A stretch of DNA of 64,000 nt. Origin: Rubrivivax sp. (lineage in GTDB: Bacteria; Pseudomonadota; Gammaproteobacteria; Burkholderiales; Burkholderiaceae_C). The notes beneath the pieces are model-generated. The model was not told the DNA's origin, made no database searches, and saw only the letters and a program-made list of their open reading frames with translations. Position numbers and translations under genes: made by a program. The stretch covers positions 275,879-339,878 of the forward strand of contig JBGAGI010000007.1 in the NCBI GenBank assembly GCA_044226775.1, written 5' to 3'. Shown here in pieces: positions 22,615-46,191 of the stretch. Within the stretch, counting starts at the first letter, position 1, and each line of letters starts with the position of its first letter.

Positions 22615-22703
22615 CCCGCACCAGCGGGGCACGCCCATGTCGGGCGCAGCCCAAGATGGGCGGCTGATGAGACAGAAAGTCTCATCAGGTCCGAAGGACT
22701 GAC
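22568..22703 (+). repeat. Two identical 48-bp direct repeats (22568-22615, 22656-22703) with a 40-bp spacer
   Basis: Unit ATGGGCGG-CTGATGAGAC-AGAAA-GTCTCATCAG-GTCC-GAA-GGAC-TGAC; contains a perfect 10-bp and a 4-bp inverted repeat; copy 1 encodes the smpB C-terminus and stop. Confidence 0.95.
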
Positions 22704-22895
22704 GCGAGCCGTCTCCGGCGCGGCGATTCGACACCCCCGAGCGGGTGGACCCCCATGAACAAGGGCGCCAACGGCGTGGCGGGTAGACCTCGGTGTAACG
22801 CCGTGCAAACGGGTGTTGCCGTAGCATGACGCAAGCGGCCTGACCCGGAGGGGTGCCATCGGCACCGGGCGGTCGCAGGCGCGGAGGTCCGATCC

Positions 22896-25139
22896 ATGCA
22901 AGCACGTCCTGAGTGGCCCGCAGTTTCGTCGCGGGCGGGGTATCGGCGGCTGCTCGTCGCGTTCCTCGGCTTCTTCGCCTGTGCGCTGGTGCAGGCGGCC
23001 GTTCCCGTCACCGAACCGCGACACGCCCTCGTCATCGGCAACGCCGCCTACGTGGCCGCGCCGCTGATCAACCCCGCCAACGACGCACAGGCCGTCGCCA
23101 AGGTGCTGCAGCGCGCCGGCTTCACGGTCGACCTGAAGCTCAACGCCACGCAGCGCCAGATGCAGGACGCCGTCACCAGCTTCGGCGACCGGCTCAAGAG
23201 CGGCGGCGCAGGCCTCTTCTACTTCGCCGGCCATGGCGTGCAGATCAAGGGCCGCAACTACCTGCTGCCGGTGGGCAGCGACATCCAGCGCGAGGACGAG
23301 GTCGCCTACAAGGCCGTCGACGTGCAGCAGGTGCTGGACAAGATGGAAACGGCCAAGAACCGCATCAACATGGTGGTGCTCGACGCCTGCCGCGACAACC
23401 CCTTCGCGCGCGCCTCGCGCTCCACCTCGGGCGGCCTGTCGCAGCTGGACGCGCCGATCGGCTCGCTGATCGCCTTCGCCACCGCGCCGGGCAGCGTGGC
23501 CAGCGACGGGCGCACGGCCAACGGCCTGTACACCCAGCACCTGCTGGCGAACATCGAGCGGCCGGGAACGGCGATCGAGGAAGTCTTCAAGCGTGTGCGC
23601 CTGGGCGTGCGACTCGATTCCAACGGCCAGCAGGTGCCCTGGGAAAGCACCTCGCTCGAAGGCGACTTCTACTTCTTCCCGCCGGCACCCACCGCCAAGA
23701 CCGGCCCGACGACGCTGCCGCCGCCGCCCGGCATCGAGCAGATCGCCCGCGCCGAGCGTGCCTACGAGCAGCTGCGCCAGGGCCAGGTGGACGATGCCGA
23801 GCGCATCTTCCGCGCGCTGGCCGGCAGCAGCCATCCGGAGGTCGTGCTGATGGGCCGCGAAGGCCTGGCCGAGGTCCAGCTGGTGAAGGGCGACACGCAG
23901 GGCGCGCTGGCCGAGGCCAACGACATCATCGCCAAGGCGCCCACGCGCAGCGCCGCCTACCTGATCCGCGGCCGTGCGCTGGCCGCCGCCGGCGACCGGC
24001 AGGCCGGCCAGGCCGCGATCACCCAGGCCGCCGCGCCGAACACCTCGGCCGACTTCTCCTGGCAGAAGGCCGACGCGCTGGTGGCCGTGGGCAACCAGCA
24101 GCGCCAGCAGGACCCGAAGCTCGCGGTGAAGACCTACGAGCGCGCGGCGCGCGAGAACCCGCAGTCGATGGCCGCGCTGTCGAACCTGGCCGTGGCGCTG
24201 AACGAGACCGGCCAACCGGCCAAGGCGCGCGCGGTGCTGGAACGCGCGAAGGAACTGGATGCGAACGACGCCGTCGTCGCCGCGCTGCTGCGCCAGACGC
24301 AGGAGGCCATCGCCGAGAGCCAGGACCTGGCGCGCCAGCGCTACATCGACGACGCGGTGAAGGACCTCGCCGCCCGCTTCCGCAACCCGCCGCCGCGGCC
24401 CGCATCGGCCGGCGCACCGGACGACTGGACCTCGGGCGCGGTCGCGCTGTCGATCCTGCCCTTCCAGGACCAGACGCTGACAATGGCCGGCGGCCGCATC
24501 GGCCTGGACGTGCTGCTGCAGCAGGAACTCTCGCGCGAGCTGCAGGCGCGCGGCTTCGCCGTCGTCGAACGCCGGCTGCTCGACAAGGTGCTCAACGAGG
24601 TGCGGCTGGGCTCCTCGGAGCTGGCCGACAGCGATACGCAGATCCGCCTGGGCCGGCTGCTCGCGGCGCGGCTGATGGTCTCCGGCTCGGTGGTGCCGAA
24701 CCCGGCCGGCGGTACGGCGGCCTCGTTCCGCGCCGTCGACACCGAGACCACGCAGCTGGCGCTGGTGCGTACCGAGCGCGCGGCTGCGGCCGCCGCCGGC
24801 GCGGCCTACGACCCGGCGCAGCTGGCCGCCGCCATTGCCAAGGCGGTGGCGCAGACGGTGGCCGACAAGTACCCGCTGAAGGGCCGCATCGTCTCGGTCG
24901 ATGGCGACAAGGCCATCATCAACATCGGCAAGAAGCAGGGCGTGGCCGCCGGCCAGCAGTTCAACGTGCTGGGCAAGGCCGAGCCGATCGAGCTCAACGG
25001 CCGCGTGCTGGGCTACAAGGAGACGCGCATCGGCCAGGTCACCGTCACCGAGGTCGAGGAAGGCCTCGCCTACGCGCGCGTCGCCACGCCGGCGCAGGGG
25101 TTGGAGCGCAACCAGCGCATCATCGCCCGCAAGGAATGA
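22896..25139 (+). CDS. Secreted caspase-family (peptidase C14) protein with TPRs, CsgG/TolB_N-like domain and FlgT_C-like domain, 747 aa
   Basis: Signal peptide ending VQA-A; ALVIGNAAY, FYFAGHG (His), VLDACRDNPF (Cys), QVPW; TPR helices; VVERRLLDKVLNEVRLG...LGRLLAARLMVSG; terminal GRIVSVDGDKAIINIGKKQGV. Confidence 0.88.
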   Translation: MQARPEWPAVSSRAGYRRLLVAFLGFFACALVQAAVPVTEPRHALVIGNAAYVAAPLINPANDAQAVAKVLQRAGFTVDLKLNATQRQMQDAVTSFGDRLKSGGAGLFYFAGHGVQIKGRNYLLPVGSDIQREDEVAYKAVDVQQVLDKMETAKNRINMVVLDACRDNPFARASRSTSGGLSQLDAPIGSLIAFATAPGSVASDGRTANGLYTQHLLANIERPGTAIEEVFKRVRLGVRLDSNGQQVPWESTSLEGDFYFFPPAPTAKTGPTTLPPPPGIEQIARAERAYEQLRQGQVDDAERIFRALAGSSHPEVVLMGREGLAEVQLVKGDTQGALAEANDIIAKAPTRSAAYLIRGRALAAAGDRQAGQAAITQAAAPNTSADFSWQKADALVAVGNQQRQQDPKLAVKTYERAARENPQSMAALSNLAVALNETGQPAKARAVLERAKELDANDAVVAALLRQTQEAIAESQDLARQRYIDDAVKDLAARFRNPPPRPASAGAPDDWTSGAVALSILPFQDQTLTMAGGRIGLDVLLQQELSRELQARGFAVVERRLLDKVLNEVRLGSSELADSDTQIRLGRLLAARLMVSGSVVPNPAGGTAASFRAVDTETTQLALVRTERAAAAAAGAAYDPAQLAAAIAKAVAQTVADKYPLKGRIVSVDGDKAIINIGKKQGVAAGQQFNVLGKAEPIELNGRVLGYKETRIGQVTVTEVEEGLAYARVATPAQGLERNQRIIARKE

Positions 25140-25831: not shown

Positions 25832-25881
25832 CCGCGATTACGTTCTCTCTCCACAGAAACCCACGAGAAGCGCCAAAGCCC

Positions 25882-27570
25882 ATGTCCGCCCTCTTCCGCA
25901 ACCCGCTGGCCCTGGCCGTCGCAGGGGCCTGCGCGGCCCTGGCGGCGCCTTCGGCGCAGGCGCAGACGCCGCCCGACGCCGGCCGGCTGCTCGAGCAGAC
26001 CCAGCCCGCGCCGCGCCCGGTGCCGCCGGCCCAGGCGCCGCGTGTCGTCGAGCCGCCGGTGCGGCCGCCGATCGTCATGCCCGAGGGCATCACCGTCACG
26101 CCCAGCGCCTTTCGCGTCAGCGGCGCGGTCTCGTTCCCGGCCGAGGAGCTGCTGGCGCTGCTCAAGCCCTTCCTCGGCCGCAAGCTCGACCTCGCCGGGC
26201 TGAACGAGGCGGCGGGCGCCATCACGCGCCGCTACCAGTCGGCCGGCCACCTGCTGAGCTACGCCTACATCCCGGCGCAGCGCGTGGCCGATGGCGTGAT
26301 CGAGCTCGCGGTGCTCGAAGGCAAGCTCGAAGGCGTGCAGATCGTCACTGCGCAGGACGTGCGGCTGCGCGACGAGGTCATCCAGGCGCACACCGATGCA
26401 CTCTCGGGCGCGGCGCCGCTGAAGCAGGCCGAGGTCGAGCGCAAGCTGCTGCTGCTGAATGACATCGCCGGCGTCACCGCGCGCGCCGCGTTCACGCCCG
26501 GCAGCAGTACCGGCGGCGCCGAGATGGTGGTCTCGGTGGCCGAGGACGAACCGCTGGACGTGAAGCTGGAGTTCAACAACCACGGCACGCGCTCCACCGG
26601 CGAGTACCGTGCCGGCGTGAGCCTGCAGCTGCGCGACCTCTTCGGCTGGGGCGACGTCACCTCGGCGCGGGCCATGGCCTCGGGCCGCGGCGGCCTGGTC
26701 AACGGCTCGCTCGCCAGCTCGGTGCCGATGGGCGGCAACGGTTTCCGCATCGGCGCCAGCCTGTCGCGGCTGACCTACCAGCTGGCCGGTGCCTTCCGCA
26801 ACCTGGGCGCCACCGGCAACGCCAACACGCTGGGCGTCGACGTGAGCTACCCCTTCGTGCGCGGCACCAGCGCCAACCTCTCGATGCGGCTGGGCCTGGA
26901 AACCAAGCGCCTGCGCGACGACGTGGAGCTGGCCGCCACGCGCAACCCCAAGCGCAACGACAGCATCGACCTGGGCCTGAGCTTCGACGCCCGCGACGGC
27001 TGGGGCGGCGCCTCGGCCGGCAGCCTCACCGCCTCGATGGGCGACCTGCAGCTGCTCGGCGACGACCCCGGCGGCACGCGCAACCTGCTGGGCGGCGCGC
27101 GCCTGTACCGCAAGCTCGGCGCGCAGCTGGTGCGCCAGCAGTCGATCAGTGGGCCGTGGAACCTGTACCTGCGCTTCGCGGGCCAGTTCAGCGGCGGCAA
27201 CCTCGACAGCAGCGAGAAGTTCGGCCTCACCGGGCCGAACATGGTGCGCGCCTATGCGCCGGGCGAAGCCTCGGTGGACAACGGCGGCCTGCTCGCCGCC
27301 GAGGTCCGCTACACGCGCGACTACGTGGGCGGCAGCGTCACGCTGTCGCTGTTCCACGAGGCCGCCGCCGGGCTCGTCAACCGCCGGCCGCTGGCCAGCG
27401 CGACCACGGCCAACGACGTGCGCATCGCCGGCTCGGGCCTGGGCCTGCAGTGGGCCACCGGCGATGTCAGCCTCGGTGCCTCGCTCGCCTGGCGCTCGCG
27501 CAAGGCGCTGGGCATCGAGGGCGCCGACACGCAGCCGCGCCTGTTCCTGCAGATGGTCGTGACGCCCTAG
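25882..27570 (+). CDS. TpsB (ShlB/FhaC/HecB) two-partner secretion outer-membrane transporter, 562 aa
   Basis: Signal peptide; two POTRA domains (Y..AG...AYIPAQ....G...AVLEG); loop-6 motif MVRAYAPG (VRGY-like); C-terminal barrel strands. Confidence 0.93.
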   Translation: MSALFRNPLALAVAGACAALAAPSAQAQTPPDAGRLLEQTQPAPRPVPPAQAPRVVEPPVRPPIVMPEGITVTPSAFRVSGAVSFPAEELLALLKPFLGRKLDLAGLNEAAGAITRRYQSAGHLLSYAYIPAQRVADGVIELAVLEGKLEGVQIVTAQDVRLRDEVIQAHTDALSGAAPLKQAEVERKLLLLNDIAGVTARAAFTPGSSTGGAEMVVSVAEDEPLDVKLEFNNHGTRSTGEYRAGVSLQLRDLFGWGDVTSARAMASGRGGLVNGSLASSVPMGGNGFRIGASLSRLTYQLAGAFRNLGATGNANTLGVDVSYPFVRGTSANLSMRLGLETKRLRDDVELAATRNPKRNDSIDLGLSFDARDGWGGASAGSLTASMGDLQLLGDDPGGTRNLLGGARLYRKLGAQLVRQQSISGPWNLYLRFAGQFSGGNLDSSEKFGLTGPNMVRAYAPGEASVDNGGLLAAEVRYTRDYVGGSVTLSLFHEAAAGLVNRRPLASATTANDVRIAGSGLGLQWATGDVSLGASLAWRSRKALGIEGADTQPRLFLQMVVTP

Positions 27571-27611
27571 GGCGCGCGCACAGAAGAACCCGTCGTTCCG
27601 GAGATCCCGCC

Positions 27612-30600
27612 ATGCCCACCCGCCACCACGCCGCCTCGCCTGCAGCGCGCCGCCCGGCCGGACCGGGGTCCTCCCGCGGCCGGCGCCGGCGCTCGCCGCA
27701 GCATCGGCCGCGCATCTCGCGCCTGCTGGCCTGGCTGCTGGCGGCCTGGCTGGGCGGCGGCAGCAGCTGGGCACTGGCGCAGGTGGCGCCGGGCGCCCTG
27801 CCCACCGGCGCGCAGGTCCGCGTGGGCAGCGCGCAGCTGCAGCAGGGCGGCAACCAGCTCGTCATCCAGCAGAACAGCGCCAAGCTGGGCCTGGACTGGC
27901 AGAGCTTCAACATCGGCGCCAGTGCGACGGTCGAGTTCCGCCAGCCCGGCGCGAGTTCGATCGCGCTGAACCGCGTGCTGGGCAACAGCGGGACCGAGAT
28001 CTACGGCCAGCTGAAGGCCAACGGCCAGGTCTTCCTGACCAACCCCAACGGCGTGCTGTTCGCACCCGGCGCGCGCGTCGACGTGGGCGGCCTGGTAGCC
28101 AGCACGCTGGACTTGTCCCAGCAGGACTTCGCCGACGGCCGCTACACCTTCACCGCGGGAACCATGGCCACCGGCTCGGTGGTCAACCGCGGCACCTTGC
28201 GCGCCAGCGCGGGCGGCTACCTCGCGCTCTTCGCGCAACAGGTGAACAACGAGGGCGACATCGCCGTCGACTCGGGCGCGGTGATGCTGGCCTCCGGCCG
28301 CGCCGCGACGGTGAGCATCAGCGGCAGCGGCCTGCTGTCGGCCGTGGTGACGCAGGGCGCGGTGCCCGGCCGCGTGGACAACAGCGGCCGCATCGCGGCC
28401 GACGGCGGCGTGGTCACGCTGTCGGCGAAGTCGGCCGAGGGCATCGCCGCCTCGCTGGTGAACAACAGCGGCATCGTGCGCGCGAACGGCATCGTCGAGC
28501 GCGGCGGCGAGGTCTGGATCACCGGCGACGAGGTCAAGCTCGCCGGCACGGTGAGCGCCGACGCCACCGGCCGCGGCGACGGCGGCCGCATCAACGTGCT
28601 GGGTGATGCGAAGCGCGGACGTGTGCTGCTGACGGGTGAACTGCATGCACAGGCCGCCGGCGACGGCCAGGGCGGCTTCGTCGAGACCTCGGCCGCGCAC
28701 GTGCAGGTGGCCGACTCCGGCCGCGTCGCCACGCGCGGTGCCGGCGGCGGCGCGGCCGGCACCTGGCTCATCGACCCGGTCGACTACACGATAGCCGCCA
28801 GCGGCGGCGACATCACCGGCGCCGTGCTCTCGGCCAACCTGGGCAACGGCAACGTCGTCGTGCAGAGCAGCGCGGGCCAGCAGGGCACGGCGGGCAACGT
28901 CGTCGTCAACGACACGGTCAGCTGGTCGGCCAACCGGCTGACGCTCAACGCCTTCGCCAACGTCAACATCAACGCGTCGCTGGTGGGCAGCGGCACGGCC
29001 ACGCTCGCGCTCGAATACGGCCAGGGCGCGGTGGCCACCGGCAACGCGGCCACGTTCACGGTCGGCAGCAGCGCCAGCGTCTCGCTGCCGGCCGGCTCGA
29101 GCTTCAGCACCAAGCTCGGCAGCAACGGCAACACCACGCCCTACACCGTCATCAACACGCTGGCGGCACTGCGGCTGGTGGACGGCAACAGCACGGCGCT
29201 GGCGACCAACTACGCGCTGGGCGCCGACATCGACGCCAGCGACACCGCCACCACCGCTTTCAGCCCGATCGGCAACGAGGCGACGAGCGCGACCGGCGCC
29301 GCCAACAGCTTCAGCGGCCGTTTCGACGGGCTGGGCCATTCGATCGCCAACCTCACGGTCAACGCGCCTTCGGCGCAGGCCGTGGGCCTGTTCGGCAACA
29401 CGAACAACGCCGTCATTCGCAACCTGTCGATCACCGGCACCTCGGCGGTGACGGGCGCGCTGTACGTGGGCGCCGTGGTGGGCGCCGGCAACGGGACCAC
29501 CTCGCTGGACAACGTGCACAGCCTCGCGCGCGTGACCGGCACCAACGCCACCAATGGCGACGTGGGCGGCCTCGTCGGCTACACGGCTACCGGCACGATC
29601 GGCAACTCCAGCGTGGGCCGCGGCGTGGCGCCCGTGCAGGTGAGCGGCGGGCAGTACGTCGGCGGGCTGGTCGGCTTCCAGGGCAGCGGCGCGCTGTCGA
29701 ACGACGACGCCAACGTCGCGATCACCGGCAGCTCGATCTACGCCGGCGGCCTGGCCGGCCGCACCGGCGGCGCCACGAGCAACGGCACCAGCGCGGGCAG
29801 CGTCGCGACCAGCGGCAACGCCTGGATCGGCGGGCTGATCGGCCGCGCCGAGGGCAGCGGCGACATCACCGGCTCCAGCTCCAGCGCCAGCGTCACGACC
29901 ACGAACACCGGCACCTACGCGGGCGGCCTCATCGGCGGCCTGTACGGCGGCAGCGTCAGCGCCAGCAGCGCCAGCGGCAACGTCAGCGGCGGCAACCGCA
30001 CCGGCGGCCTCGTGGGCGACTTCAGCACCAGCGCCGGCGCGATCGTCACCGGCGGCCAGGCCAGCGGCGACGTGGCCGGCAGCACCGATGTCGGCGGCCT
30101 GGTGGGCTATGCCAGCGGCAACGGGCGCATCGTCTCCTCATCGGCCACCGGCAATGTGAGCAACGCGGGCAGCAACGGCCGTGTCGGCGGCGCGGTGGGC
30201 TACTTCGTGCTGAGCGGCGCCTCGCCGATCGTCGGGCTCGGTGCCAGCGGCAATGCCACCGGCGGCTCGATCGCCGGCGGCGTGATCGGCCAGCTCGACA
30301 CGAACGTGGCGCTTTCGCCGGCCAACCTGAGCAGCAATGCGCCGGCCAGCGGCACCAAGACGGTTTCCGCGGCGAGCTGGGCCGGCGGCCTGGTGGGCTA
30401 TCTCAATGCGGCCGGTGCGGTCAGCGGCTACAGCGGCGCCTCGGCGCTCACGGTGAACGTAAGCACCACGGGCGGCGGCGGCGCGGCCGGCGGCATGCTC
30501 GGCCGCAGCGTGGGGCCGGTCTCGGCCAGCGCCGGCAGCGGCACCGTCACGGCGGCCAATGGCTCCGCCGGCGGCCTCGTGGGCCAGGCCGACGGCAACG

Positions 30601-33600
30601 TCGTCTTCGATGGCCTGAGCTTCACCGGCAGTGTCAGCTCCGGCACCACGAGCGGCAGCGTCGGCGGCCTGTTCGGCTCCATCACCGGCACCGGCGCAAC
30701 GCTGACGAATGGCACCGTCGGCACGGCCGGCAGCCCGGTGACGGTGAGCAACGGCAGCTTCACCGGCGGCCTGGTGGGCAGCAGCAGCGCGGCTTCGGTC
30801 AGCGGCACGGCCTACGTCACCATCACCGGCAACGGCAGCTACCTCGGCGGCATCGTGGGCCGCAGCGGCGGCGCGGTGAGCGCCAGCACGGCCACCGGCA
30901 CCCTCACCTCGGCGAGCACCGGCTACGTCGGCGGCCTCGTGGGCCGCGCCGAGAACGCCAGCGGCGGCTCCGACCTGATCAGTGGCAGCACCGCCAACAT
31001 GACGGTCACGGTGAGTTCGACCGGCGCCTACGTCGGCGGCCTGGTCGGCAGCTCGAGCAACGTCGGCATCAGCGGCTCGACCGCCACCGGCACGGTCAGC
31101 GGCGGCGCCCGCACCGGTGGCCTCGTGGGCGACTTCTTCAGCAATGCGCAGACGCCGCTGAACATCGACAGCTCCACGGCCAGCGGCAACGTCTCCGGCG
31201 CCTCCGACACCGGCGGCCTGGTCGGCTACTCGTCGGGCAACGGCGCCATCAGCGGCTCAGGCGCCACCGGCAACGTCAACGGCACGACGAGCAACGGCAG
31301 CATCGGCGGCGCGCTCGGCTACTCCGCGCTGAGCGGCGGCTTCACCGGCTTGACGGCGCAAGGCAACGTTGCCGGCGGAGACACGGGCGGCGGCGTGATC
31401 GGCACGCTCGCGGCCAACCTGGTGCTCGCCCCGGCCAACCTGCGCAGCGTGGCGCCCGCCAGTGGCACGAAGACGGTGAGCAGCAGCTCGGTCGCCGGCG
31501 GGCTGATCGGCAACAGCCAGAGTTCGCAGCTGATCAGCGGCTTCACCGGCAGCAACGCGATGAGCGCCGACGTCAGCGCCACCGCCAGCGGCGGCACCGC
31601 CGGCGGCCTGCTCGGCATCAGCCGCGGGCCGGTGGCCAACAGCACGTCCAGCAGCGCCGTGAGCGGCCAGACGGCCGGCGGGCTGGTGGGCAATGCCTCG
31701 ACCAGCATCGCCGGCACGCTCACCGACGTGTCCGCCAGCGGCAGCGTCACCGGCACCGGCAGTGGCGGCTCGATCGGCGGCCTCGTGGGCGTGGTCAGCG
31801 GCAGCCTCAGCATCGCGCACGGCACGGCCAGCGGCGTGGTCAGCAACGGCGGCATCGCCGGCGGGCTGGTCGGCAGCTTCAGCGGCAGCGGCAGCATCGT
31901 CGCCAACGGCAGCGGCGAGATCTCGCAGGCCGGCGGCGCGGTCTCGGGCCGCACGCAGGCGGGCGGCCTGGTGGGCGACGCCGGCGGCAGCGGCTCGATC
32001 ACCGGCGCCCTGGCCACCGGCCGCGTGGCCGGCAGCGCCAGCGGCGGCGACCTGGGCGGCCTGGTGGGCCGCTTCCGCATGAGCGGCGGCATCGGCGGCA
32101 GCGAGGCGCGCGGCAACGTCACGGGCGACCTGTCGTCCAACGCCGGCGGCCTCGTGGGCCGGGTGGACGACGGCGCGGGCGACATCACGGCGAGCCGCTC
32201 GACGGCCTCGGCCGTGTCGGGCGGCATCGCCGGCGGGTTCATCGGCAGCGTGACCGTCTACGACGGTTTCTCGATCATCGACGGCCACGCACGGGCCGAC
32301 GTCGCGGGCGACAGCTACGTGGGCGGCCTGGTGGGCTACCTCGGCGGCGGCAGCCCGAGCAACGCCGCGGGCGTGCTGCGCGACGTGAGCGCCAGTGGCC
32401 GCGTCACGGGCACGAACTATGTCGGCGGCCTGGTCGGATCGCTGCAGGGCCGCAGCATCGTGAACGGGCAGGCCACCGGCCCCGTGGTGGGCACCTCCTC
32501 GCTCGGCCAGAACGTGCTGTACATCGGCGGCCTGGTGGGCGAGTTCAACAGCGGCTACTGGGGCACGGCGCAGACGATCAGCGGCGCCAGCAGCGCCAGC
32601 GGCAGCGTCACGTCCGATTCGTACTACTCGTACGCCGGCGGCCTGGTCGGCTACATGAACGGCCAGACGGCGCTCAGCAACGTCTCGGCCAGCGGCGCGG
32701 TGACGCAGCTGGACACCATCAGTGGCGGCACCAGCAGTTCCAGCCACTACGCCGGCGGCCTGGTGGGCCTGGCCAGCGGCATCATCGGCATCGACCACGG
32801 CAGCACCGGCCCGGGCAGCAACGTCACCGGGCGCGGCGTCTCGGGCGGCCTGGTCGGCTACTTCGCGTCGTCGAGTTCACCCACCCTGGCCTTCGCCTAC
32901 GGCGGCTCGATCACCGGCAGCACGGTCTCCGGCGTCACGGTGACCGGGTTCGACGGCGTCGGCGGCCTGGTCGGCCAGTTCAGCTCGAACAGCGGCAACA
33001 TCAACAACAGCTCGGCGCTGCTGGTGGCCGTGCGCAGCGCCGGCACCGGTGCCAGCTACCTGGGCGGGCTGGCCGGCAGCGCCAGCCTGGGCACGAACGC
33101 CTTCCGCGTCTCGGCCACCGGCAGCGTCAGCGGCGTCGCGCAGTACGCCGGCGGCCTGTTCGGCGAACTCAGCAGCGGCGGCATCGAGACCAGCAGCGCC
33201 AACGTCACGATCTCGGGCGCCGTGCAGCTGGCCGGCGGGCTCGTCGGGCGCGCGGTGCCCTCCATCGCGAATGCCTGGATCCGCGACAGCAGCGCGGCCG
33301 GCGATGTGTCCAGCACACGTTCGTCCGCGTTCGCCGGCGGCCTCGTCGGCCAGTACTCCAACAGCTCGGGCTACGGCAGCATCGTCAACAGCAGCGCCAG
33401 CGGCGACGTGACGCTGAGCGGCAACACGTCCACCGGCGGCGGGCTCGTCGGCAACTATTCGAGCAGCACGGCCCGCGCGAGCGACGACATCAACGGCAGC
33501 TTCGCCTCGGGCGACGTGACGACGACACAGATCGGCGGCGGCCTGGTCGGCCAGTTCACCGGCGTGCGCGGCATCGTGCTCAGCGGCGCGACCGGCAACG

Positions 33601-36600
33601 TCACGCTCACCACGCTGGACGGCGTGCAGGCCGGCGGCCTGGCCGGCATATTCCAGGCGCTGACCAGCGGCACCGCCACCGGTCTCATCGACCGCAGCTA
33701 TGCCAGCGGCAACGTGGCGGGCACACCGGGCAAGGTGCTGGGCAACTTCGCCACCGCCACCGCGGGCGGCCTGGTGGGCCTGCTGCGCACGCCGCTGGCG
33801 ACCACCGTGGCCATCAGCGACGCCTACGCCACCGGCAGCGTCACGCTGGCCAGCAGCAGCACGTCGAACTCGTCGACGATCGTCGAGGGCGGCCTCGTGG
33901 GCGAGTCGCAGGGCAGCATCCTGCGCGGCTACGCGACCGGGGCCGTCAGCGGCTCGGGTGCGGTCACCGTCACCGCCGGCGGACTGGTCGGCCGGCTCAC
34001 GAACGGCCGCAGCACCGCCACCGCGACGGCCAGCCTCTGGGCCGCCGACAGCACCGGCCGCAGCACCAGCGCCGGCGGCGGCACGGCCTCCACGCTGGCC
34101 GCGATGCGCCAGGCCGCGACCTTCACCGCCGCGGGCTGGCCCTCGATCTCCTCGGCCTTCTCCTCCGGCACCACCTGGCGCGTCTACGAAGGCCTGACGA
34201 CGCCGCTGCTGGCCGACCTGCTCAAGCCGCTGAACCTCACGCTGAGCGACGCGAGCAAGGTCTACGACGGCACCACTTCGTTCGGCAACGCGACGCTGCC
34301 GGGCGTGCAGAACCCGGACAAGCTGTTCATCACCAGCCCCTCCCCGAACGTCGGCAGCTACGGCTTCACGGCCGCCAGCGTCTTCTCGAACCAGCAGGGC
34401 TACAACATCGGCAGCATCAGCGGCAGCGGCACGCTGAGCATCACGCCGCGCGCGCTGACGCTGGCCGGCACGGTGGCCGACAAGGTCTACGACGCCACGC
34501 GCGACGCCACCTTCAAGCCCGGCGCGCAGCCGCTGGGCCTGGTGGCCGGCGAAGACCTGGTGCTGGACACCTCGACGGCGCTGGCCGCCTTCGACACGAA
34601 GAACGTCGGCAGCGCCAAGGCGGTCACGATCACCGGCGTGACGCTGGCCAACGGCACCCGCGGCCTGGCCTCGAACTACTCGCTGTCGACCACCGGCGCG
34701 ACCGCCACGGTGACGCCCGCCACCTTGAACGCCGGCGGCTTCAGCGCCGTCGACCGTGTCTACAACGGCAGCACGCTGGTGCAGGTGAACGCGACGAGCG
34801 GCACGCTGGACGGCGTGCTGGGCACCGACCAGGTCTCGGTGGACCTGTCCGGCGTGACCAGCGGCACGATGGCCAACAAGAACGTCGGCAATGCGAAGAC
34901 GGTGACCGTCTCCGGCATCGCCCTCGGCGGCGCCGACGCGGGCAACTACCTCCTCGCGGGCAGCAGCAACGTCACGGTCAACATCACGCCGCGCACGCTC
35001 ACCGTCGACGGCCTGGCACCGCCCTCGCGCACCTACGACAGCGCCACCGACGTCTATACGCCGGCCAACGGCGCCACGCTGAACGGGCTGATCACCGGCG
35101 ACGTAGTGGGCCTGGCCGACAGCTACTTCTACGGCACGATCGCCGACAAGAACGTCGGCACCGCCAAGCCCGTGACCTACGGCGCCGGCGTCATCCGGCT
35201 GCGCGGCGTCGATGCGGCGAACTACACGCCGCAGGCCGGCGCGACCGCGGTCGACGTGACGCCGGCACAGGTGGGGATCGGGGTCAACTTCCAGAACGGC
35301 TCGAACACCAAGGTCTACGACGGCAGCGCGGCCGCGCCCTTCGTCATCACCTCGGTGTTCAAGTATGCCGGCGACGACCTCACGCTGAGCACCTCGACGC
35401 CCAGCTTCGCCGACAAGAACGTCGCCTACGACAGCAACGGCAACGTCGTCTCGCGCCAGATCACCATCGCCGGCGGCGTGCTCTCCGGAGCCGATGCCGG
35501 CAACTACCAGCTGCAGAGCACCACCAGGACGACCTCCGGCACGATCACGCCGCGGCCGCTGGCCGTGACCGGCGTGTCGGCGACGCCCCGCGCCTACGAC
35601 GGCACCGCCAACGTCGAGGTGAACCTCGCGAACGTCTCGGTCGACACGACCGTCGTCGTGCCCAACGACGACGTCGCGGTCCAGCTGCCCGGCAGCAGCA
35701 CCGTCACCGGCACGATCCCGAACAAGAACGCCGGCAACAACCGCCCGGTGACGGTGCCCGGCCTCGCGCTGACCGGTGCCGACCGCCGCAACTACACGCT
35801 GACGGGCACCAACGGCGTCACGGTGAACATCGCGCAGCGCGACGTGACCGCGGTCTACACCGGCCTGTCCCGGCCCTACGACGGCGGCACCAGCGCCTGG
35901 GTCTCCGCGGCGGAGGCGCCGGGGACGGAGTTCATCGCCAACGACAACATCGTCTTCAGCACCAACTACATCCCCTCGAGCCCCTGCTACCTGACCTGCG
36001 GCTTCTTCCCCGGCACCGGCACCGCGCCGCGCAGCGCGGGCACCGGCAAGGCCTTCACGATCAACAGCGTCTACCTGGTCGGCACGGATGCCGCCAACTA
36101 CCGCCTCACGAACCCGAGCGGCAGCGGCACGGCCACGGTCACGCCCAAGGACATCACCGCCGCCTTCACCGGCACGAGCAAGGTCTACGACGGCAGCGCC
36201 TCGGCCGACGGCGCGGTGGGCCTGAACAAGGGCAACAGCGGCATCTTCTCCTTCGACAACGTCACGTCCACGCAGAGCGCCGTGTTCACCGACGCGGTGC
36301 CCAAGAACGTCGGCACGAACAAGCCGGTGGCGATCTCCGGCATCGTGCTGGGCGGCACGGAGGCCGGCAACTACAGGCTCCTCACCACGACGGCCAGCGC
36401 CACGGCCGGCGTCACCGCCAAGCCGGTGACGGTCAGCGGCATCAGCGCCATCGACCGCAACTACGACGGCACGACGGCGGTGCAGCTCAACGTCGGCGCG
36501 CTCGGCTCGGCCGGTTTCGTGCAGAACGACGTGGTCAGCGTCGTGCCGCCCACGGGCAACGCCGGCACCATCGCCGACAAGAACGCCGGCAACGCCAAGC

Positions 36601-39600
36601 CGGTGACGGTCACGGGCCTGGCGCTCACCGGCGCCGACGCCGCCAACTACCGCATCGATGCCGCGGCCAGCGGCATCACGGTGAACATCGCCAAGCGGCC
36701 GCTGACGGCCACCTACACCGGCGTGGCACGCCCCTACGATGGCAGCACGCTGGCCACGGTGACGGCCGCGTCGGCCGACATCGTCGTCGGCGACACCGTC
36801 AGCTTCACGCAGACGGCGCAGTTCACCGGCCCCGACGCGCGCAACACCGGCACCGCCAAGCCGGTGGCCGTGACCGGCATCGCCATCGACAGCGGCTCGC
36901 AGGCCAACTACGCGCTGCAGAACACCACCGCCAGCACCACCGCGGACATCACCGCGCGGGGCGTGACGGTCACCTTCACCGGCGTGAGCCGCGTCTACAA
37001 CGGCGCCGACGACCACAGCATCAGCGTCAACGGCACCTCGTCCGACGACGTGTTCCGCGTCGACGCGGTGCAGATCACGCAGCAGGCCGTGCTGGCCGGC
37101 GACGGCAACGCGGGCACCGGCAAGGCGGTGAACGTCAGCGGCATCGCCCTGAGCGGCCCGGGCGCCTCCAACTACACGCTGGCCAACACGACGGCCACCA
37201 CCACCGCGACGATCCTGCCCAGGCCGATCGGCGTGACCGGCATCACCGCCACCAGCCGCGCCTACGACGGCACCGACGTGGTCGCGGTCAACCTGAGCAA
37301 CGCCACGCTGGACCGCAGCGCCATCCTGGGCACCGACGCGCTGACGCTCGTCACGCCCGGCGGCAGCAGCACCGGCACGCTGCACGCCGGCAAGAACGCC
37401 GGCCTGGGCAAGGTGGTCGACGTGTCCGGGCTGCTGCTGTCGGGCGCCTCCGCCGCCAACTACACCGTGGCCGGCGCCAGCGGGCTGACGGTGGACATCA
37501 CGCCCAAGCCCGTCAGCGCCACCTACCGCGCCGCCGACAAGACCTACGACGGCAGCGCGAACGCGGCCATCACCGCGCAGTCCGCAGGCTTCGAGGCCGT
37601 GGACGTGGGCGCCGTGGGCATCAGCGCCAGCGGCTCCTTCTCGGACAAGAACGCGGCCAGCGGCAAGACGGTGAGCGTGCTGGCCGGCTTCCTCACCGGC
37701 GTGGAGCGCGGCAACTACAGCCTGCTGAACCCGACGGGCCAGACCACCGCGACGATCTCGCCCAAGCTGCTGACGGCCGCCTACACCGGCGGCAGCCGCG
37801 TCTACGACCAGGGCGTGAGCGCGCCGGTGACGGCGCAGCGCACCGGCGTGATCGCCGGCGACGACCTCTCGTTCACGCAGACGGCCGTGTTCACCGGCGC
37901 GAACGCGAAGAACGCGGGCAGCAACAAGGCGATCGCGATCACCGGCATCGCGCTGGCCGGCGCCGATGCCGGCAACTACCGGCTGCAGGCCACCACCGCC
38001 AGCGCCACCGGCACCGTCACGCCCAAGGACCTGACGGTCAGCGGGCTGACCAACGTCACCGCCACGAACCGCGTCTACGACGGCACGCCGACGGTCGAGG
38101 TGACGATCCCCAGCGGCAGCGTGATCACGCCCAACAGCGCCGACATCATCAGCGGCGACGACGTCTCGATCAGCGTGCCGGTCGCCGGTGTCACCACCGG
38201 CACGATGCGCGACAAGAACGTCGGTACCGACAAGCCGCTGACGATCACCGGCTTGTCGCTGTCGGGCACCGACAAGGACAACTACCAGATCGTCGGCGCG
38301 GCCGGCGTGACGGTGAACATCAGCCCGCTGGCGATCAGCGCGAGCTACGCCGGCATCTCGCGCGCCTACGACGGCAGCGTCAACGCCAGCGTGCGCGGCA
38401 GCTCCGCCGGCATCCTGGGCGGCGACAGCCTCACCATCAGCGGCAGCGGCGTCTTCACCGGCGCCGGTGCGAAGAACGTCGGCACCGGCAAGGCGATCGA
38501 CGTGCGCAGCGCCAGCCTCTCCGGCGTGGACGCGCGCAACTACACGCTCACCAACCCGAGCGGCGCGGCCACGGGCGACGTGACGCCGCTCTTCCTCACC
38601 GCCAGCTACAGCGGCGGCACGCGCGTCTACGACGGCGGCACTGCGGCACCGGTCACCGGCAGCGCCGGCTTCGTCGGCGGCGACGACATCCGCCTCGTGC
38701 AGAACGCCGTCTTCACCGGCGCCACGGCGCGCGACGCCGGCACGAACAAGGCCATCAGCGTCACCGGCATCACGCTGGCCGGCACCGACGCGGCCAACTA
38801 CCGGCTCAACAACGCCAGCGCCACCACCAGCGGCACCGTCACGCCCAAGCCGATCCGCATCGACGGGCTCACCGGCGTCAGCGCGCACGACCGCGTCTAC
38901 GACGGCACGCGCGATGTCGTGGTCGACGTGCTGTCCAACGGCACCATCACCGTCAACACCGCCGACATCGTGCCGGGCGACCTGGTCGACGTGGCGGTGC
39001 CGCAGACCGGCACGACCACGGGCCGGATGGCCGACAAGAACGTCGGCGTCGGCAAGGCGGTCACCGTCACCGGCCTGGGGCTCAGCGGGACCGACGCGCA
39101 CAACTACACGATCAACGTCGCCAACGGTGTGACCGTCAACATCTCGCCGCTGGCGCTCACCGCCACCTACGGTGGCGTGGCGCGGATCTACGACGGCGGC
39201 ACCACGGCCAGCGTCACCGGCTCGGCATCGGGCATCGTCGTGGGCGATGCGCTGACGATCACCGGCAGCGGCGTGTTCACCGGCGCCGGCGCGAAGAACG
39301 CCGGCACGGCCAAGCCGATCGAGGTGCTGAGCGCGCAGCTGGGCGGCACCGACGCGCGCAACTACACCCTCGTCAACACGACCGGCAGCGCCAGCGGCGA
39401 CATCCTGCGCCGGCAGCTGGGCGTGACCTACGCCGACGTGACACGCGTCTACGACGGCACCGTGCTCGCGCCGGTAACGGGCACGCTCGACGCGACCGAC
39501 TTCATCGCCGGCGACAAGGTCACGCTGTCGCAGAGCGCGGTGTTCACCGGCACGGGCGCGAAGAACGTCGGCAGCGGCAAGGCGGTGAGCATCAGCGGCA

Positions 39601-42218: not shown

Positions 42219-43571
42219 ATGACCCCCAAGCACAAGCACACGATGCGCCGGCGGCGCGCCCGCACGGTGGCCGCCGCGGCGGCGGCCGCCTTTGCGCTGA
42301 TGGCCGCCACGGCGGCCCGGGCCGCGCCGCTGGACGACATCCGCCGCCAGGTCGAGGCCAGCCAGTTCGAGCAGGCCTGGGCCACCGCGCAGGCCAACCC
42401 GCAGCTGATCGGCGACGTGCACTTCGACTTCCCCTACGGCGTGGCCGCCATCGCCACCGGGCGCGTGGCCGAGGGCCTGCTCGCGCTGGAGCGCCACCTC
42501 GCCGCGGTGCCGGCGAACGACCGCGCGCGGCTGGAGCTGGCGCGCGGCTACTTCCTGCTCGGCGAGTACGCGCGCGCCCGCGCCGAGTTCGAGTTCGTGC
42601 TGCGCTACAACCCGCCGGCCGGCGTGCGGGCGAACATCGAGAGCTACCTGCTGGCGATGCAGTCGCGCGAAGGCGCGACGCGGCGCAGCGCGGCGCGGCT
42701 GTACGTGGAGGCCGGCGCCGCGCACGACAACAACGTGAACCTCGGCACCTTCCACGACGTGGTGGCGCTGGACACCGCCACGTTCAGCCTCGAGGGCAGC
42801 CCCTCGCGCCAGATGAGCGACGATCAGGCCCTGCTGGCGCTGGGCGGCGAGCGCAGCTTCCGCGTCACCGCGCGCACCTCGGTCTTCGCCGGCGCCGATG
42901 TCGACCACCGCGAGAACTCGCGCCTGAAGCAGTTCAACCTGACGAACGCGAACGGCTACATCGGCTTCTCGCAGATCGCGGGCAACGCGCTGTGGCGCAC
43001 CAGCCTGGGCGGCGGCGAGATGATGGTCGGCGGCAACCGCTACCGCGACACGCGGTCGGTGGACACCGAGGCCGAGTTCACGCTGCGCGCGAACTTCTCG
43101 GTCTCGGTCTTCGGGCGCTACGCCGAGATCCGCCACGCGCAGGCCGACGAGATCCGCGACAACAACGCCAGCACGCTGGGCAGCAGCTTCACCTGGCGCC
43201 CCGGCGACACGCCCGGCACCGCCAGCCTGGGCCTGCGCGTGAGCTACATGCACGAGGGCTCGACCACCGCGCGGCCCTACCTCGCGCACGACAGCAGCTT
43301 CGTGCGCGTGTTCGCCTCGATGGCCCCGATCGACCGCCTCTTCGTCAGCGGTGGCCTGAGCGCGCGCCAGGACCGCTACGGCCAGGCCGACCCCACGTTC
43401 AAACAGCGCCGCCGCGACGACTGGATCAACGCCGACCTGCTGATGGCCTGGACCCTGGGCGCCGGCTGGTCGCTGCGCGGCGAGGCGCTGTGGACCATCA
43501 ACCGCTCGAACATCGACCTGTTCGACTACGGGCACAAGATGGCCTCGCTGAAGCTGCGCTACCAGTACTGA
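42219..43571 (+). CDS. TPR + outer-membrane beta-barrel protein, Slam/DUF560-like, 450 aa
   Basis: Signal peptide; TPRs (DFPYGVAAIATG, RARLELARGYF..GEY..ARAEFE.VL..NPP..V..NI..YL); barrel starting GAAHDNNVN with alternating aromatic strands and terminal LRYQY. Confidence 0.75.
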   Translation: MTPKHKHTMRRRRARTVAAAAAAAFALMAATAARAAPLDDIRRQVEASQFEQAWATAQANPQLIGDVHFDFPYGVAAIATGRVAEGLLALERHLAAVPANDRARLELARGYFLLGEYARARAEFEFVLRYNPPAGVRANIESYLLAMQSREGATRRSAARLYVEAGAAHDNNVNLGTFHDVVALDTATFSLEGSPSRQMSDDQALLALGGERSFRVTARTSVFAGADVDHRENSRLKQFNLTNANGYIGFSQIAGNALWRTSLGGGEMMVGGNRYRDTRSVDTEAEFTLRANFSVSVFGRYAEIRHAQADEIRDNNASTLGSSFTWRPGDTPGTASLGLRVSYMHEGSTTARPYLAHDSSFVRVFASMAPIDRLFVSGGLSARQDRYGQADPTFKQRRRDDWINADLLMAWTLGAGWSLRGEALWTINRSNIDLFDYGHKMASLKLRYQY

Positions 43572-43615: not shown

Positions 43616-44791
43616 ATGACCGCTCGATCGAACCCGCCCGCGCCCCGCACGCTGCTGGCCGCGCTGGCCCTTGCCGCGCTCGCGCCAGCCACCGCCTGGA
43701 GCCAGGACCGCATCGTGCGCGCCGAAGGCAGCGTGCTGCTCAACGGCCAGCCGGTGGCCGCCGGCGCCGCGCTGGCCGACGGCCGCCTGCAGACCGGCGC
43801 CGACGGCCGGGTGCAGGTGCGCATGGCCAGCGGCGCGCTGATCGTGCTGCCGCCCGACAGCGCCGTGGTGATGCGCGCCGACGTGCCGCGGGCCATCGGC
43901 CTGGCCGCCGGCGGGCTGCGGCTGAGCACCGCGGGCAGCGAATGGCGCGTGGAGCTGCCGGACCGCGACATCCGCACCAACGGCTACCTGAAGCTGCAGC
44001 CCTGCGCCGCCGGCTGCACGCTGCCGCCCGGGCTGTACGGCCGCATCGCGCAGGGCGAGGCGGTGCTCGAGTACCGCGGCGGCCGCTCGGTGCTGCGCGG
44101 CCGCAACTTCCGCTGGGCCGATGCCGGCTCGCGGCCCGAGCTGCTCAGCACCGCGCCGGCGCTGCTGGACGACGCCAGCACGATCGACGCCGCCACGCGC
44201 GCCCGCGCCCAGGTGGCCGTCACGCTGAAGGCCGGCCTGGACGCCTTCGCCGCCGGCGACGACGCCGCGGCGCAGCGTGCGCTCGACATCGTGGCCGCGC
44301 AGTCGCCGGGCGAGCCGCTGGTCTCGTACTACCTCGGCCTGATCGCGCTGAAGCAGGAGCGCAACGCCGAGGCGCTGCGCCTGCTGCAGCAATACGCCCG
44401 CGAAGACCCGGCCGGCGCCGCGCAGCGCGAGGTCGCCAAGACGTTGACGGTGCTGTCGTCCACGCAGCTGCAGCAGGAGGTGGCCACCGCGGTGGCGCGC
44501 GAGCAGCAGGTGGCCGCCACGCCGCCGGAGCCCGGCTCGATCGCCGTGCAGGCCTTCGTCAACCGCGGCAGCGAGAGCTACCGGGCGCTGGCCAAGGGCC
44601 TGGCCGCGATGATCATCGCCGACCTCTCCAAGGTCCCCGGCCTGACGGTGCTGGAGCGCGAGAAGGTGCAAAGCCTGATCGACGAGGCCAAGCTCGGCGA
44701 CGCGGGCCTGGCCGACACCAGCTCGGCGGTGCGCTCGGGCCGGCTGATGCGGGCCGAGAAGGTCGTCGTCGGCAACTTCGAGGTGAAGTGA
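43616..44791 (+). CDS. Secreted FecR-like + TPR protein ending in the N-terminal part of a CsgG/TolB_N-like domain, 391 aa
   Basis: GGAG RBS; signal peptide ending AWS-Q; LQTGADGRVQV..ASG..IVL.PDS (FecR-like); TPR SYYLGLIAL; C-terminal IAVQAF...VLEREKVQSLIDEAKLG...GRLMRAEKVVVGNFEVK*. Confidence 0.75.
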   Translation: MTARSNPPAPRTLLAALALAALAPATAWSQDRIVRAEGSVLLNGQPVAAGAALADGRLQTGADGRVQVRMASGALIVLPPDSAVVMRADVPRAIGLAAGGLRLSTAGSEWRVELPDRDIRTNGYLKLQPCAAGCTLPPGLYGRIAQGEAVLEYRGGRSVLRGRNFRWADAGSRPELLSTAPALLDDASTIDAATRARAQVAVTLKAGLDAFAAGDDAAAQRALDIVAAQSPGEPLVSYYLGLIALKQERNAEALRLLQQYAREDPAGAAQREVAKTLTVLSSTQLQQEVATAVAREQQVAATPPEPGSIAVQAFVNRGSESYRALAKGLAAMIIADLSKVPGLTVLEREKVQSLIDEAKLGDAGLADTSSAVRSGRLMRAEKVVVGNFEVK

Positions 44792-46191
44792 TGGGCAAGA
44801 ACCGTCTCCCCTGCCTGCACGTCGCCGCAGCGCTGCTGCTGGTCGCCGCATCGGCCGCCCAGGCGCAGGCGCAGGCCCAGGTCCAGGCCCAGGCCTACAC
44901 GCTCGAAGGCGCCGTGGTCGACAGCCGCAACGGCCAGAGCCTGGGCGTGATCAACGAGCGCGGCGACATCGCCGGCGTGTTCCGCGCGCAGAAGGCGATG
45001 ACCTTCGGCATCCTGCGCGCCGCGGGCATCTCGCTGGAGCAACTGCCGGCCGACGTGCGGGCACGCATCGAGCGCTTCCAGACCCAGAACGTCGAAGCCT
45101 TCCGCGCCTTCTCCGAGGGCCTGGACCTGAAGGACAAGGGCCGCTTCGCCGAGGCCAAGGCGCAGTTCCGCCGCGCCGCCGAGCTCGACCCCGGCTTCGC
45201 GCTGGCGCAGGAGCAGGCGCAGGCCATGCCCGACAGCAACGTCACCGCCGGCCTGCAGATGCGCGCGCTGCTGGCCGCGGTGGCCGGCACCGCGGTCGAT
45301 CGCGGCAAGGTCTCGGTGGTGGTCGACGCGGCGCGCGCCATCGCCGCGCTCGGCGCCGGGCTGCAGGTGGTGGCCATCGCGGCCGAGCCGAGCAGCCGCG
45401 CCGACAACACCTACACCGCCAATCCGGCCGGCGCCGGCAACCAGTTCCAGCCCGACCTGGTGGTCGGCCTCGCCTACCACCAGGTGGGCGAGGCGCAGGC
45501 GGTGCTCGGCGTGGCCAGCGCGCAGGTGTGGCCTGGCACGGCCTACGCCGTCGACGGCAATGCGCTCGAATCGATCGGCGGGCCTGGCGCGTTCGAGGCG
45601 CGGCGCGCGCGCGCGACGCAGGCGCCGGTGGGCAGCACCGCGCTGGCCGACGGCAGCAGCGTCTACTGGGGCTCCTGGGCCGCGAGCCCGCAGGGCAACT
45701 GGGTGGCGGCGTCCAGGAGCAACGCCATCGCGGTGGCCGGGCCCTTCGCCTACGTCATCGGCCAGGCGCCCACGGAAATGCCGCAGTCCAACACCTTCAC
45801 CTTCGCCGCGCGCGCCAATGCCGGCACGCTGGGCTCGCCCGAAGGCAACATCGTCGTCGACTTCGCGCGCCAGACGGTGGCGCTGCAGAACCTGGGCTTC
45901 ACGATCGACGAGCGCTTCGCCTTCTCCGGCCTCAACGGCAACGCGCGCTTCGGCGTGGCCGGCTCGCCGGGCAACCTGGTGGCGGCCGACCCGAACGCGG
46001 CCGACCGCACGCCGCGCTACACCAGCGGCAGCTGCGCCGGTTGCGGGCCGGGCTTCACCGCCAGCTCCGGCACCTTCGGCGGCAACTTCGTCGGCCGCGG
46101 CTACACCGGGCTGGTCTTCTCGACCATCCTGCCCACCGGCGTGGCGGCCACGCCGGTGGTCTCCGGCGTGCACCTGTTCGCGCGGCCCTGA
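44791..46191 (+). CDS. Secreted protein: C-terminal part of a CsgG/TolB_N-like domain + TPR + beta-rich (TbpB/hemophilin-like barrel candidate) domain, 466 aa
   Basis: TGATG overlap with the upstream stop; own signal peptide with AQA sites; LEGAVVDSRNG; TPR AFSEGLDLKDKGRF...DPGF; C-terminal YWGSW, VDFARQ, FGGNFVG strands and a CAGC pair. Confidence 0.7.
   Translation: MGKNRLPCLHVAAALLLVAASAAQAQAQAQVQAQAYTLEGAVVDSRNGQSLGVINERGDIAGVFRAQKAMTFGILRAAGISLEQLPADVRARIERFQTQNVEAFRAFSEGLDLKDKGRFAEAKAQFRRAAELDPGFALAQEQAQAMPDSNVTAGLQMRALLAAVAGTAVDRGKVSVVVDAARAIAALGAGLQVVAIAAEPSSRADNTYTANPAGAGNQFQPDLVVGLAYHQVGEAQAVLGVASAQVWPGTAYAVDGNALESIGGPGAFEARRARATQAPVGSTALADGSSVYWGSWAASPQGNWVAASRSNAIAVAGPFAYVIGQAPTEMPQSNTFTFAARANAGTLGSPEGNIVVDFARQTVALQNLGFTIDERFAFSGLNGNARFGVAGSPGNLVAADPNAADRTPRYTSGSCAGCGPGFTASSGTFGGNFVGRGYTGLVFSTILPTGVAATPVVSGVHLFARP

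Follow-up and report, generated by a model that had tools for sequence, protein, structure and literature searches.

An exported caspase homologue in a two-partner secretion operon of Rubrivivax, a candidate protease of a giant adhesin

What is a caspase doing in an adhesin operon? The question is raised by a Rubrivivax sp. locus in contig JBGAGI010000007.1, of which positions 275,879 to 339,878 were analysed (64,000 nucleotides, hereafter the window; all positions below are counted from its first letter). Seven co-directional genes occupy 22896-46191, separated by gaps of 41-50 nt or joined by start/stop overlaps, and all of them encode proteins with signal-type N-termini. The operon encodes a two-partner secretion system (TPS, type Vb secretion), with a TpsB transporter that carries a POTRA_2 domain and a ShlB barrel and a TpsA protein with an N-terminal TPS domain. 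Its first gene (22896-25139, forward strand, as are all the features of the window described here; an open frame of 747 amino acids, aa) encodes a caspase homologue of the Peptidase_C14 family, referred to below as the caspase. A sequence-only reading of this gene had suggested that the enzyme may process TpsA or a partner, perhaps gated by TPR or CsgG-like contacts with the product of the adjacent gene. The present analysis compared the locus with other TPS loci of the same genome, with 61 genomes and with wider protein collections.

Pairing of C14 caspases with two-partner secretion loci

The genome contains six genes with a TPS domain and 12 C14 domains, and five of the six TPS loci carry a C14 domain, which is fused in two of them and belongs to an adjacent exported protein in three. 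In the window locus (C3), the caspase is a separate protein encoded by the first gene of the operon. A 456-aa exported C14 protein at locus C12 and a 987-aa exported WD40-like/C14 protein at locus C1 are each encoded directly after TpsA. At loci C10 and C13, C14 is fused to the C-terminus of TpsA itself (Pfam E 1.8e-25 and 1e-21, respectively), and locus C7 has a TPS gene and no C14. No C14 match could be found inside the TpsA gene itself at the four TPS loci of this genome that have a separate C14 or none. The C14 domain of C12 was approximately 28-31% identical to that of the window caspase, and neither of the fused domains (C10, C13) was recovered at E 1e-5 with the head of the window caspase as the query (CaspN). 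As these domains are mutually divergent, different C14 lineages have been recruited to TPS loci.

The census of the 61 genomes was made by cross-matching the tables of TPS and C14 matches by hand, and five doubtful loci were checked by sequence. It revealed that at least 26 of the 55 TPS genes in the genus are linked to C14 (13 fused and 13 adjacent), which is a lower bound, as the count covers the C14 matches listed and many contigs are short. Two fused cases were present among the 20 TPS genes outside the genus. One locus, G400:C41, was removed from the linked set, its two genes being 15 kb apart with unrelated genes between them. A further search with the fused C-terminal region returned about 100 clusters of proteins of 1,780-5,190 aa having both TPS and Peptidase_C14 domains. 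These fusions came from Rubrivivax, Paucibacter, Rhodocyclaceae, a deltaproteobacterium and Azospirillum, and thus from Beta-, Alpha- and Deltaproteobacteria, and both of the external fusion loci examined adjoin a TpsB gene. The trio of TpsB, TpsA and C14 seen at C12 is kept in three other species (G399:C70, G429:C2 and G407:C51; L168-L170). Because C14 is fused to TpsA in some systems and stands beside it in others, the classical fusion argument indicates a direct functional relationship between the two.

The gene set of the window was also followed across genomes. Of 37 genomes of the genus, 7 have the full-length caspase, and precisely these 7 also have the genes for the small protein encoded next to it and for the beta-rich protein encoded last in the operon. 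The small-protein and beta-rich genes were found in one further, fragmentary assembly, whose contig stops where the caspase gene would sit. Gene order was constant within the genus. G299, a member of a different genus in the family, has all seven genes, with the caspase in last place. On a metagenomic contig (L166; caspase 43% identical), TpsA is followed by barrel protein, FecR-like protein, beta-rich protein, caspase and small protein. Read as a circle (caspase, small protein, TpsB, TpsA, barrel, FecR-like, beta-rich), the orders in the window genus, G299 and L166 differ in their starting point only. The gene set therefore survives rotation in lineages whose caspases are 40-50% identical, and a set kept despite a rearranged order argues for one functional system. 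The circular rotation could reflect a tandem duplication followed by loss.

Two claims of the sequence-only reading can be judged from these data. It had placed the caspase first in an adhesin operon, which holds in this genome and genus, but the same gene is last or fifth in other lineages. Its proposal of a role in the adhesin locus gained ground in part, namely as to a functional partnership of the caspase with the locus, as the shared phyletic pattern, the rotated gene sets and the linkage counts in the genome and the genus all point in that direction. Overall, a functional link of C14 caspases with two-partner secretion loci is well supported.

Several features of the sister loci were recorded. 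The TpsA proteins of C10 (C10:62111-71818) and C13 (C13:214333-207152; L158 and L159) have a complete Peptidase_C14 domain at their C-terminal end, in which the motifs YYAGHG and SDSC(Y/F)SG occur; in front of it lie a Pro/Ala linker and a conserved helical segment containing a Cys-X11-Cys pair. At C12 (C12:242452-224720; L160), TpsB and a giant TpsA are accompanied by the exported C14 protein of about 460 aa, which has a helical tail. The leader of the C12-type C14 proteins contains an RRRW motif and may be of the Tat type, and the C12-type TpsA proteins end in a conserved Cys pair (...LTCPPAAGLLSCG), recalling the C-terminal cysteines of CdrA. At C1 (C1:826432-814470), TpsB is followed by a TpsA with an apparent frame change near 822600 (a frameshift or an assembly error), and the 987-aa exported protein consists of WD40-like repeats and a C-terminal C14 domain with DTCHSG. 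In Azospirillum fermentarium (L161), a CHASE2-guanylate/adenylate cyclase gene lies directly upstream of TpsB and a TpsA-C14 fusion; no CHAT or CHASE2 genes were found beside the TPS loci of the present genome.

Protease head, export signal and FlgT-like module of the caspase

The Peptidase_C14 domain of the caspase spans aa 42-259 (23019..23672; Pfam E 2.5e-37) and matched PF00656 over positions 2-233 of 233 with 129.3 bits against a cut-off of 21.4. The intact catalytic dyad claimed in the sequence-only reading could be confirmed, as the motifs FYFAGHG (aa 108-114), LDACR (aa 162-166) and QVPW (aa 246-249) are all present, with the catalytic His113 at codon 23232-23234 and Cys165 at codon 23388-23390. 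The His/Cys dyad was kept in 119 of 119 close orthologues; 117 of them retain the strict motifs, and the other two vary only beside the His or the Cys. The nearest solved sequences to the head were the MALT1 paracaspases (HMMER alignment, E 3.6e-12). FYFAGHG aligns on YYAGHG of MALT1 and VLDACR on LLDMCR, and the dyad matches the MALT1 His/Cys. An AlphaFold2 model of aa 36-275 (predicted local distance difference test, pLDDT, 86.6) gave MALT1 as the top Foldseek matches (template modelling score, TM, 0.77-0.79; E 2e-18), followed by caspases 7, 9 and 11 and CED-3.

Three acidic residues of the head, Asp63, Asp163 and Asp204, align with the three acidic S1-pocket residues of MALT1, which we take to be Asp365, Asp462 and Glu500 of its Arg-binding S1 pocket (the numbers were confirmed by counting along the alignment). 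These three residues and the dyad were invariant in two alignments (A1 and A3) reaching down to 40-50% identity. The invariant dyad and the MALT1-like acidic residues lead to the prediction of an active protease that would cleave after Arg or Lys, not after Asp. A basic P1 specificity is established for orthocaspases (PMC6426788). The caspase is thus predicted from its sequence to be a catalytically competent C14 protease of the paracaspase/metacaspase type. The sole specific NCBIfam caspase subfamily that matched was NF047832 (caspase, EACC1-associated type), which scored 57 bits against a cut-off of 140.

The window has approximately 70% G+C with many spurious long frames, and the true genes were picked by plotting the G+C content of third codon positions (GC3) in each frame together with start-codon scans. 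The coding frame of the caspase has a GC3 of 0.9-0.97, and a Shine-Dalgarno sequence, GGAGG (22883..22887), could be read 8 nt upstream of the ATG at 22896. A scan of 22400-27700 for promoters and terminators returned nothing above chance. Two identical palindromic units of about 48 bp are located at 22568-22703, at and after the 3' end of smpB and upstream of the caspase gene.

The first 34 residues (22896..22997) form a signal peptide in which an RR pair is followed by a 16-residue hydrophobic core, LLVAFLGFFACALVQA, and a VQA|A site; this is the only strongly hydrophobic stretch of the protein. The orthologues inspected have similar leaders at the N-terminus, among which the twin Arg and the Cys vary. 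Since neither the RR pair nor the Cys is conserved, a Tat or lipoprotein signal is unlikely and the leader was assigned as a Sec signal peptide. Export of the caspase from the cytoplasm is predicted accordingly, in agreement with the sequence-only reading.

Behind the head, helical repeats resembling tetratricopeptide repeats (TPR) extend over approximately aa 287-467 (23754..24296), with Pfam TPR_16/TPR_19 at aa 402-467 and NCBIfam TPR-type matches at aa 287-380 and 330-459. The next region, aa 515-658 (24438..24869), is an alpha/beta domain of the TolB-N/CsgG type, recognised by Pfam, AlphaFold2 and Foldseek, with a conserved DDWTS motif in front. Pfam CsgG (PF03783) matched aa 537-600 with 36.8 bits (cut-off 20.8), but of its 210 profile positions only 40-99 were aligned. 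With this partial profile match and a lipobox that is not conserved, the caspase is not a member of the CsgG channel family; its alpha/beta domain is CsgG-like in fold only, through a shared TolB-N-type core. The protein ends in a small FlgT_C-like beta-barrel (aa 660-747; 24873..25136) with eight strands in the model. Pfam FlgT_C at aa 670-732 scored 25.7 bits, just under the cut-off of 27, which homologues exceed (30.6 and 34.6 bits).

The model of aa 500-747 was of high quality (pLDDT 90.4; predicted TM score 0.84). Foldseek ranked FlgT (3w1e, E 8.8e-14) first, followed by FlgT in the Vibrio LPHT ring (8z5n), TolB-N, GNA1162, CsgG and PelC, and several of these structural relatives were solved as rings. 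The 3w1e match covers both C-terminal domains of the caspase. As FlgT is the best match over both, the CsgG-like and FlgT_C-like pieces make up one FlgT-like two-domain module. The C-terminal barrel also matched the N-terminal barrels of F1-ATPase. The fusion to TPR, CsgG-like and FlgT_C-like domains that the sequence-only reading described was therefore recovered. Its further statement that bacterial caspases are often TPR-regulated goes beyond the literature, where the 2012 survey of prokaryotic caspase homologues records TPR, Sel1 and WD40 as the commonest fusion partners only, along with possible signal peptides; CsgG is not named there (PMC3501461).

With aa 275-747 as the query, 124 clusters at E <= 1e-30 were obtained from 1.8 billion representative proteins. 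In these, the TPR-FlgT-like module was found with an AhpC/TSA head (the commonest, about 640 aa), a caspase head, caspase plus AhpC/TSA, cyclase plus CHAT, or no head at all. With such varied heads, the module seems to serve as a portable anchor by which various enzymes are brought to a single type of site in the envelope. The family of about 640 aa (proteins P0122-P0150), with an AhpC/TSA thioredoxin-like head on the module, is widespread, and the one such locus examined (L164) is a stand-alone gene amid housekeeping genes. Proteins P0159 and P0181, of about 1,100 aa, combine a nucleotide cyclase, a CHAT caspase-like domain and TPRs with the CsgG/FlgT-like module.

The other genes of the operon

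The gene adjacent to the caspase (25136-25831), to whose product the sequence-only reading had referred, encodes a small exported protein of 231 aa with a CsgG-like domain (Pfam E 4.5e-12) and a TPR tail. It was located by GC3 plot and start scan, and an ATGA overlap joins its start to the caspase stop codon, indicating translational coupling. In plain lists of open reading frames (ORFs), this gene is masked by the longer spurious frames 22913-25831 and 24901-27570, and the 889-aa ORF at 24901 is TpsB plus a false N-terminal extension of 327 aa. The small protein is 32% identical to aa 520-654 of the caspase. TpsB itself is an outer-membrane transporter of 562 aa (25882..27570; POTRA_2 E 2.1e-18, ShlB E 6.8e-25), for which a start with a signal peptide could be located.

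TpsA is a giant secreted protein of 4854 aa (27612..42176) with a TPS domain (E 2.8e-36) and YDG and MBG_2 repeats. The last YDG/MBG repeat is followed by some 100 aa of poorly conserved tail (41877-42176). In four lineages (the window, L072, G299 and L166), this tail ends in a short conserved motif (RRLPLLSV, LLRLPMLSI, SQQPLISL and RQQPIIIW) of the type (R/Q)(R/Q/L)(L/Q)P(L/I/M)(L/I)S, and the TpsA of locus C1 in the same genome has a similar one. This terminal motif may be considered a candidate handle or recognition site.

The three remaining genes follow TpsA. An exported protein of 450 aa with TPRs and a predicted barrel (42219..43571) is kept in the gene set; Pfam at E <= 0.01 gave it a weak TPR_19 match only and no DUF560 match, and its assignment as a Slam protein was not confirmed. 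The next gene (43616..44791) encodes an exported FecR-like protein of 391 aa with TPRs and a partial CsgG-like domain (Pfam CsgG E 8e-8, TPR_16 and a weak FecR match), and shares 41% identity with the small CsgG-like protein in its C-terminal part. Among the caspase, the small protein and the FecR-like protein, the CsgG-like modules are thus paralogous, with 32-41% identity. The last gene (44791..46191; GC3 and start scan), overlapping the preceding stop codon by 1 nt, encodes an exported TPR and beta-rich protein of 466 aa. The gene after it is convergent and metabolic. No flagellar gene was present among the neighbours scanned.

Proposed role, rival explanations and known systems

In the TPS substrates that have been studied, FhaB, CdrA and CdiA, the C-terminal part is retained in the periplasm when the remainder has already left the cell. 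Proteolysis of this periplasm-held part governs the maturation or release of FhaB and CdrA (PMC4542190, PMC4694147). For the caspase, we propose the role of a periplasmic protease that docks on a scaffold and there processes or releases the giant TpsA, a reading to which we give an even chance. The caspase would be exported by Sec with its dyad intact, with Arg or Lys at the P1 position of its cleavage sites. It would be docked by its TPR repeats and FlgT-like module on a periplasmic scaffold beneath the outer membrane. Such a scaffold may be built of paralogous CsgG-like/TPR modules, namely the small protein and the FecR-like/beta-rich pair, beside the TpsB pore, and docking through the CsgG-like modules is plausible because that of the caspase is paralogous to those of the small and FecR-like proteins.

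The window caspase would then be the trans-acting form of the module that is fused to the C-terminal end of TpsA in the sister systems. By analogy with FhaB, CdrA and CdiA, this end is probably held longest in the periplasm, where a fused C-terminal C14 domain or a separate Sec-exported C14 protein would share a compartment with the TpsA tail. The caspase may cut this tail, or a protein that retains TpsA, and the cut may control maturation, surface retention or release of the TpsA fibre. As with other enzymes of the caspase family, activation may come about by crowding, in this case on the scaffold. A broader and more tentative proposal, which we hold to be possible but less probable than the local one, is that C14 homologues are a habitual built-in or docked release or maturation switch of type Vb secretion, activated by crowding and cutting the adhesin tail after Arg or Lys. 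In such a switch, the protease would wait on the periplasmic side, as a fusion to the TpsA C-terminus that is kept there or on a FlgT-like ring below the pore.

Several observations weigh against a role of the caspase in TpsA processing. The signal peptide is the only feature from which the location of the caspase is predicted. In the TpsA tail, a cleavage site could not be identified, the short terminal motif being all that is conserved, and comparison of this tail with the linker preceding C14 in the fused TpsA proteins gave no significant similarity, with only the YDG/MBG repeats aligning. At 78 other loci with caspase heads 47-66% identical, no TpsB, TpsA or other operon gene was found in flanks of <=10 kb. 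A general tie of the caspase-head clade to TPS was therefore rejected (0 of 78), and the link is carried by this operon family plus the independent C14 lineages. In a distant relative, L167, the trio of barrel, FecR-like and beta-rich genes faces the caspase gene, at which the short contig ends, and TPS genes are not visible on it; the trio could therefore be the true partner of the caspase. Under that explanation, the substrate to be processed or activated would be, for example, the FecR-type protein in its two pieces or some cargo of the Slam-like barrel, and TpsA would be a co-regulated neighbour. The caspase gene comes directly after, or faces, the beta-rich gene in G299, L166 and L167, and the caspase and the FecR-like protein have paralogous CsgG-like and TPR modules, which would suit such a partnership. 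However, C14 genes pair with the TPS loci C12, C1, C10 and C13, where the barrel, FecR-like and beta-rich proteins have no matches, the C12-type TpsB-TpsA-C14 arrangement is conserved in three other species, and L167 is only a short contig ending at the caspase gene. Service to the trio is accordingly regarded as improbable, although it is the most serious of the rivals.

The caspase might also be carried to the cell surface, for example by the barrel protein of the operon, to trim or release TpsA as SphB1 does with FHA, or to attack foreign proteins. It does end in a small beta-barrel domain, and a toxin function has been proposed for caspase-fold domains at the C-terminus of other large secreted proteins (PMC3482391). 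Yet Pfam does not put the barrel protein in DUF560, the C-terminal barrel of the caspase matches FlgT_C and the F1-ATPase N-terminal barrels, and the caspase is without a lipobox. Moreover, its relatives FlgT, TolB-N, PelC and CsgG are periplasmic or lie on the inner face of the outer membrane, and a surface location is considered quite unlikely. The fused C14 domains may also be toxins with accompanying immunity genes, but no small immunity-type gene is present downstream in the two external fusion loci, and at C10 a large lipoprotein gene comes after TpsA-C14. Least probable of the graded rivals, with hardly any weight given to it, is a general periplasmic housekeeping or stress protease whose adhesin neighbourhood has no functional meaning. 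Exported C14 proteins with many different tails are indeed common and mostly occur in unrelated contexts. Against this, the caspase, small-protein and beta-rich genes have one phyletic pattern, the gene set is conserved despite its rotated order, and five of the six TPS loci of the genome are linked to C14, compared with a rough estimate of approximately 5% per locus by chance.

Prokaryotic caspase homologues are abundant, and surveys note their fusion partners, but most of these homologues lack an established physiological substrate (PMC3501461). Their pairing with TPS, as fusions or neighbours, in about half of the TPS loci of the genus suggests a testable job for exported bacterial caspases. 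The literature search found no paper linking C14 proteases to two-partner secretion, most subscription journals being outside its coverage. In the 2012 survey of polymorphic toxins, HINT is the only type V processing protease, and type V is not among the export routes of Tox-Caspase (PMC3482391). Type Vb secretion may therefore have a protease partner that is not recorded in the literature found, this survey included. If the general switch were true, a physiological substrate would be defined for the first time for exported bacterial caspases, and type V secretion would gain a new regulatory layer. The analysis also identified an apparently portable TPR-FlgT-like anchor that carries caspase, thioredoxin-like and cyclase plus CHAT enzymes.

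Among known systems, the functionally closest is that of LapG with CdrA/CdrB and with LapA, where a periplasmic cysteine protease likewise frees a giant adhesin (in CdrA, of the TpsA type) from its outer-membrane partner. LapG belongs to a different protease family, is under the control of LapD and c-di-GMP, and lacks a TPR or FlgT-like module. Unlike in that system, no LapG- or LapD-type gene is found among the seven genes of the operon. The release of the TpsA adhesin CdrA by LapG, a cysteine protease of the periplasm, is documented in Pseudomonas aeruginosa (PMC4694147). The maturation of FhaB in Bordetella by SphB1, CtpA and DegP resembles the proposal in having a periplasm-held C-terminus and its regulated removal by dedicated proteases (PMC4542190). 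In contrast to the window enzyme, these are serine proteases, and none of them is a caspase homologue. SphB1 is a surface autotransporter.

MALT1, the metacaspases and the orthocaspases (C14) share with the window caspase the same fold, the His/Cys dyad and the three acidic S1 residues, whereas the window enzyme is bacterial, exported (as predicted) and fused to TPR and FlgT-like domains. Activation of MALT1 takes place when it assembles on a scaffold. The best structural match to the last 250 residues is FlgT from the flagellar H ring of Vibrio (3w1e, 8z5n), part of the solved LPHT ring, but only the region corresponding to its middle and C-terminal domains is present, the caspase has no Pfam match to the N-terminal domain of FlgT, its scanned neighbours are non-flagellar and the identity is 11-12%. 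The C-terminus of the caspase thus resembles FlgT as a module and is not a FlgT orthologue. Finally, Zhang et al. described caspase-fold releasing peptidases and Tox-Caspase domains within huge secreted proteins and proposed them for autoprocessing or as C-terminal toxins (PMC3482391), whereas the window caspase is a separate protein with a proposed docking on a scaffold. Set beside these systems, it would belong to a known kind, the dedicated envelope protease of a giant adhesin, and what appears to be new, judged by the literature found, is the pairing of a caspase with two-partner secretion.

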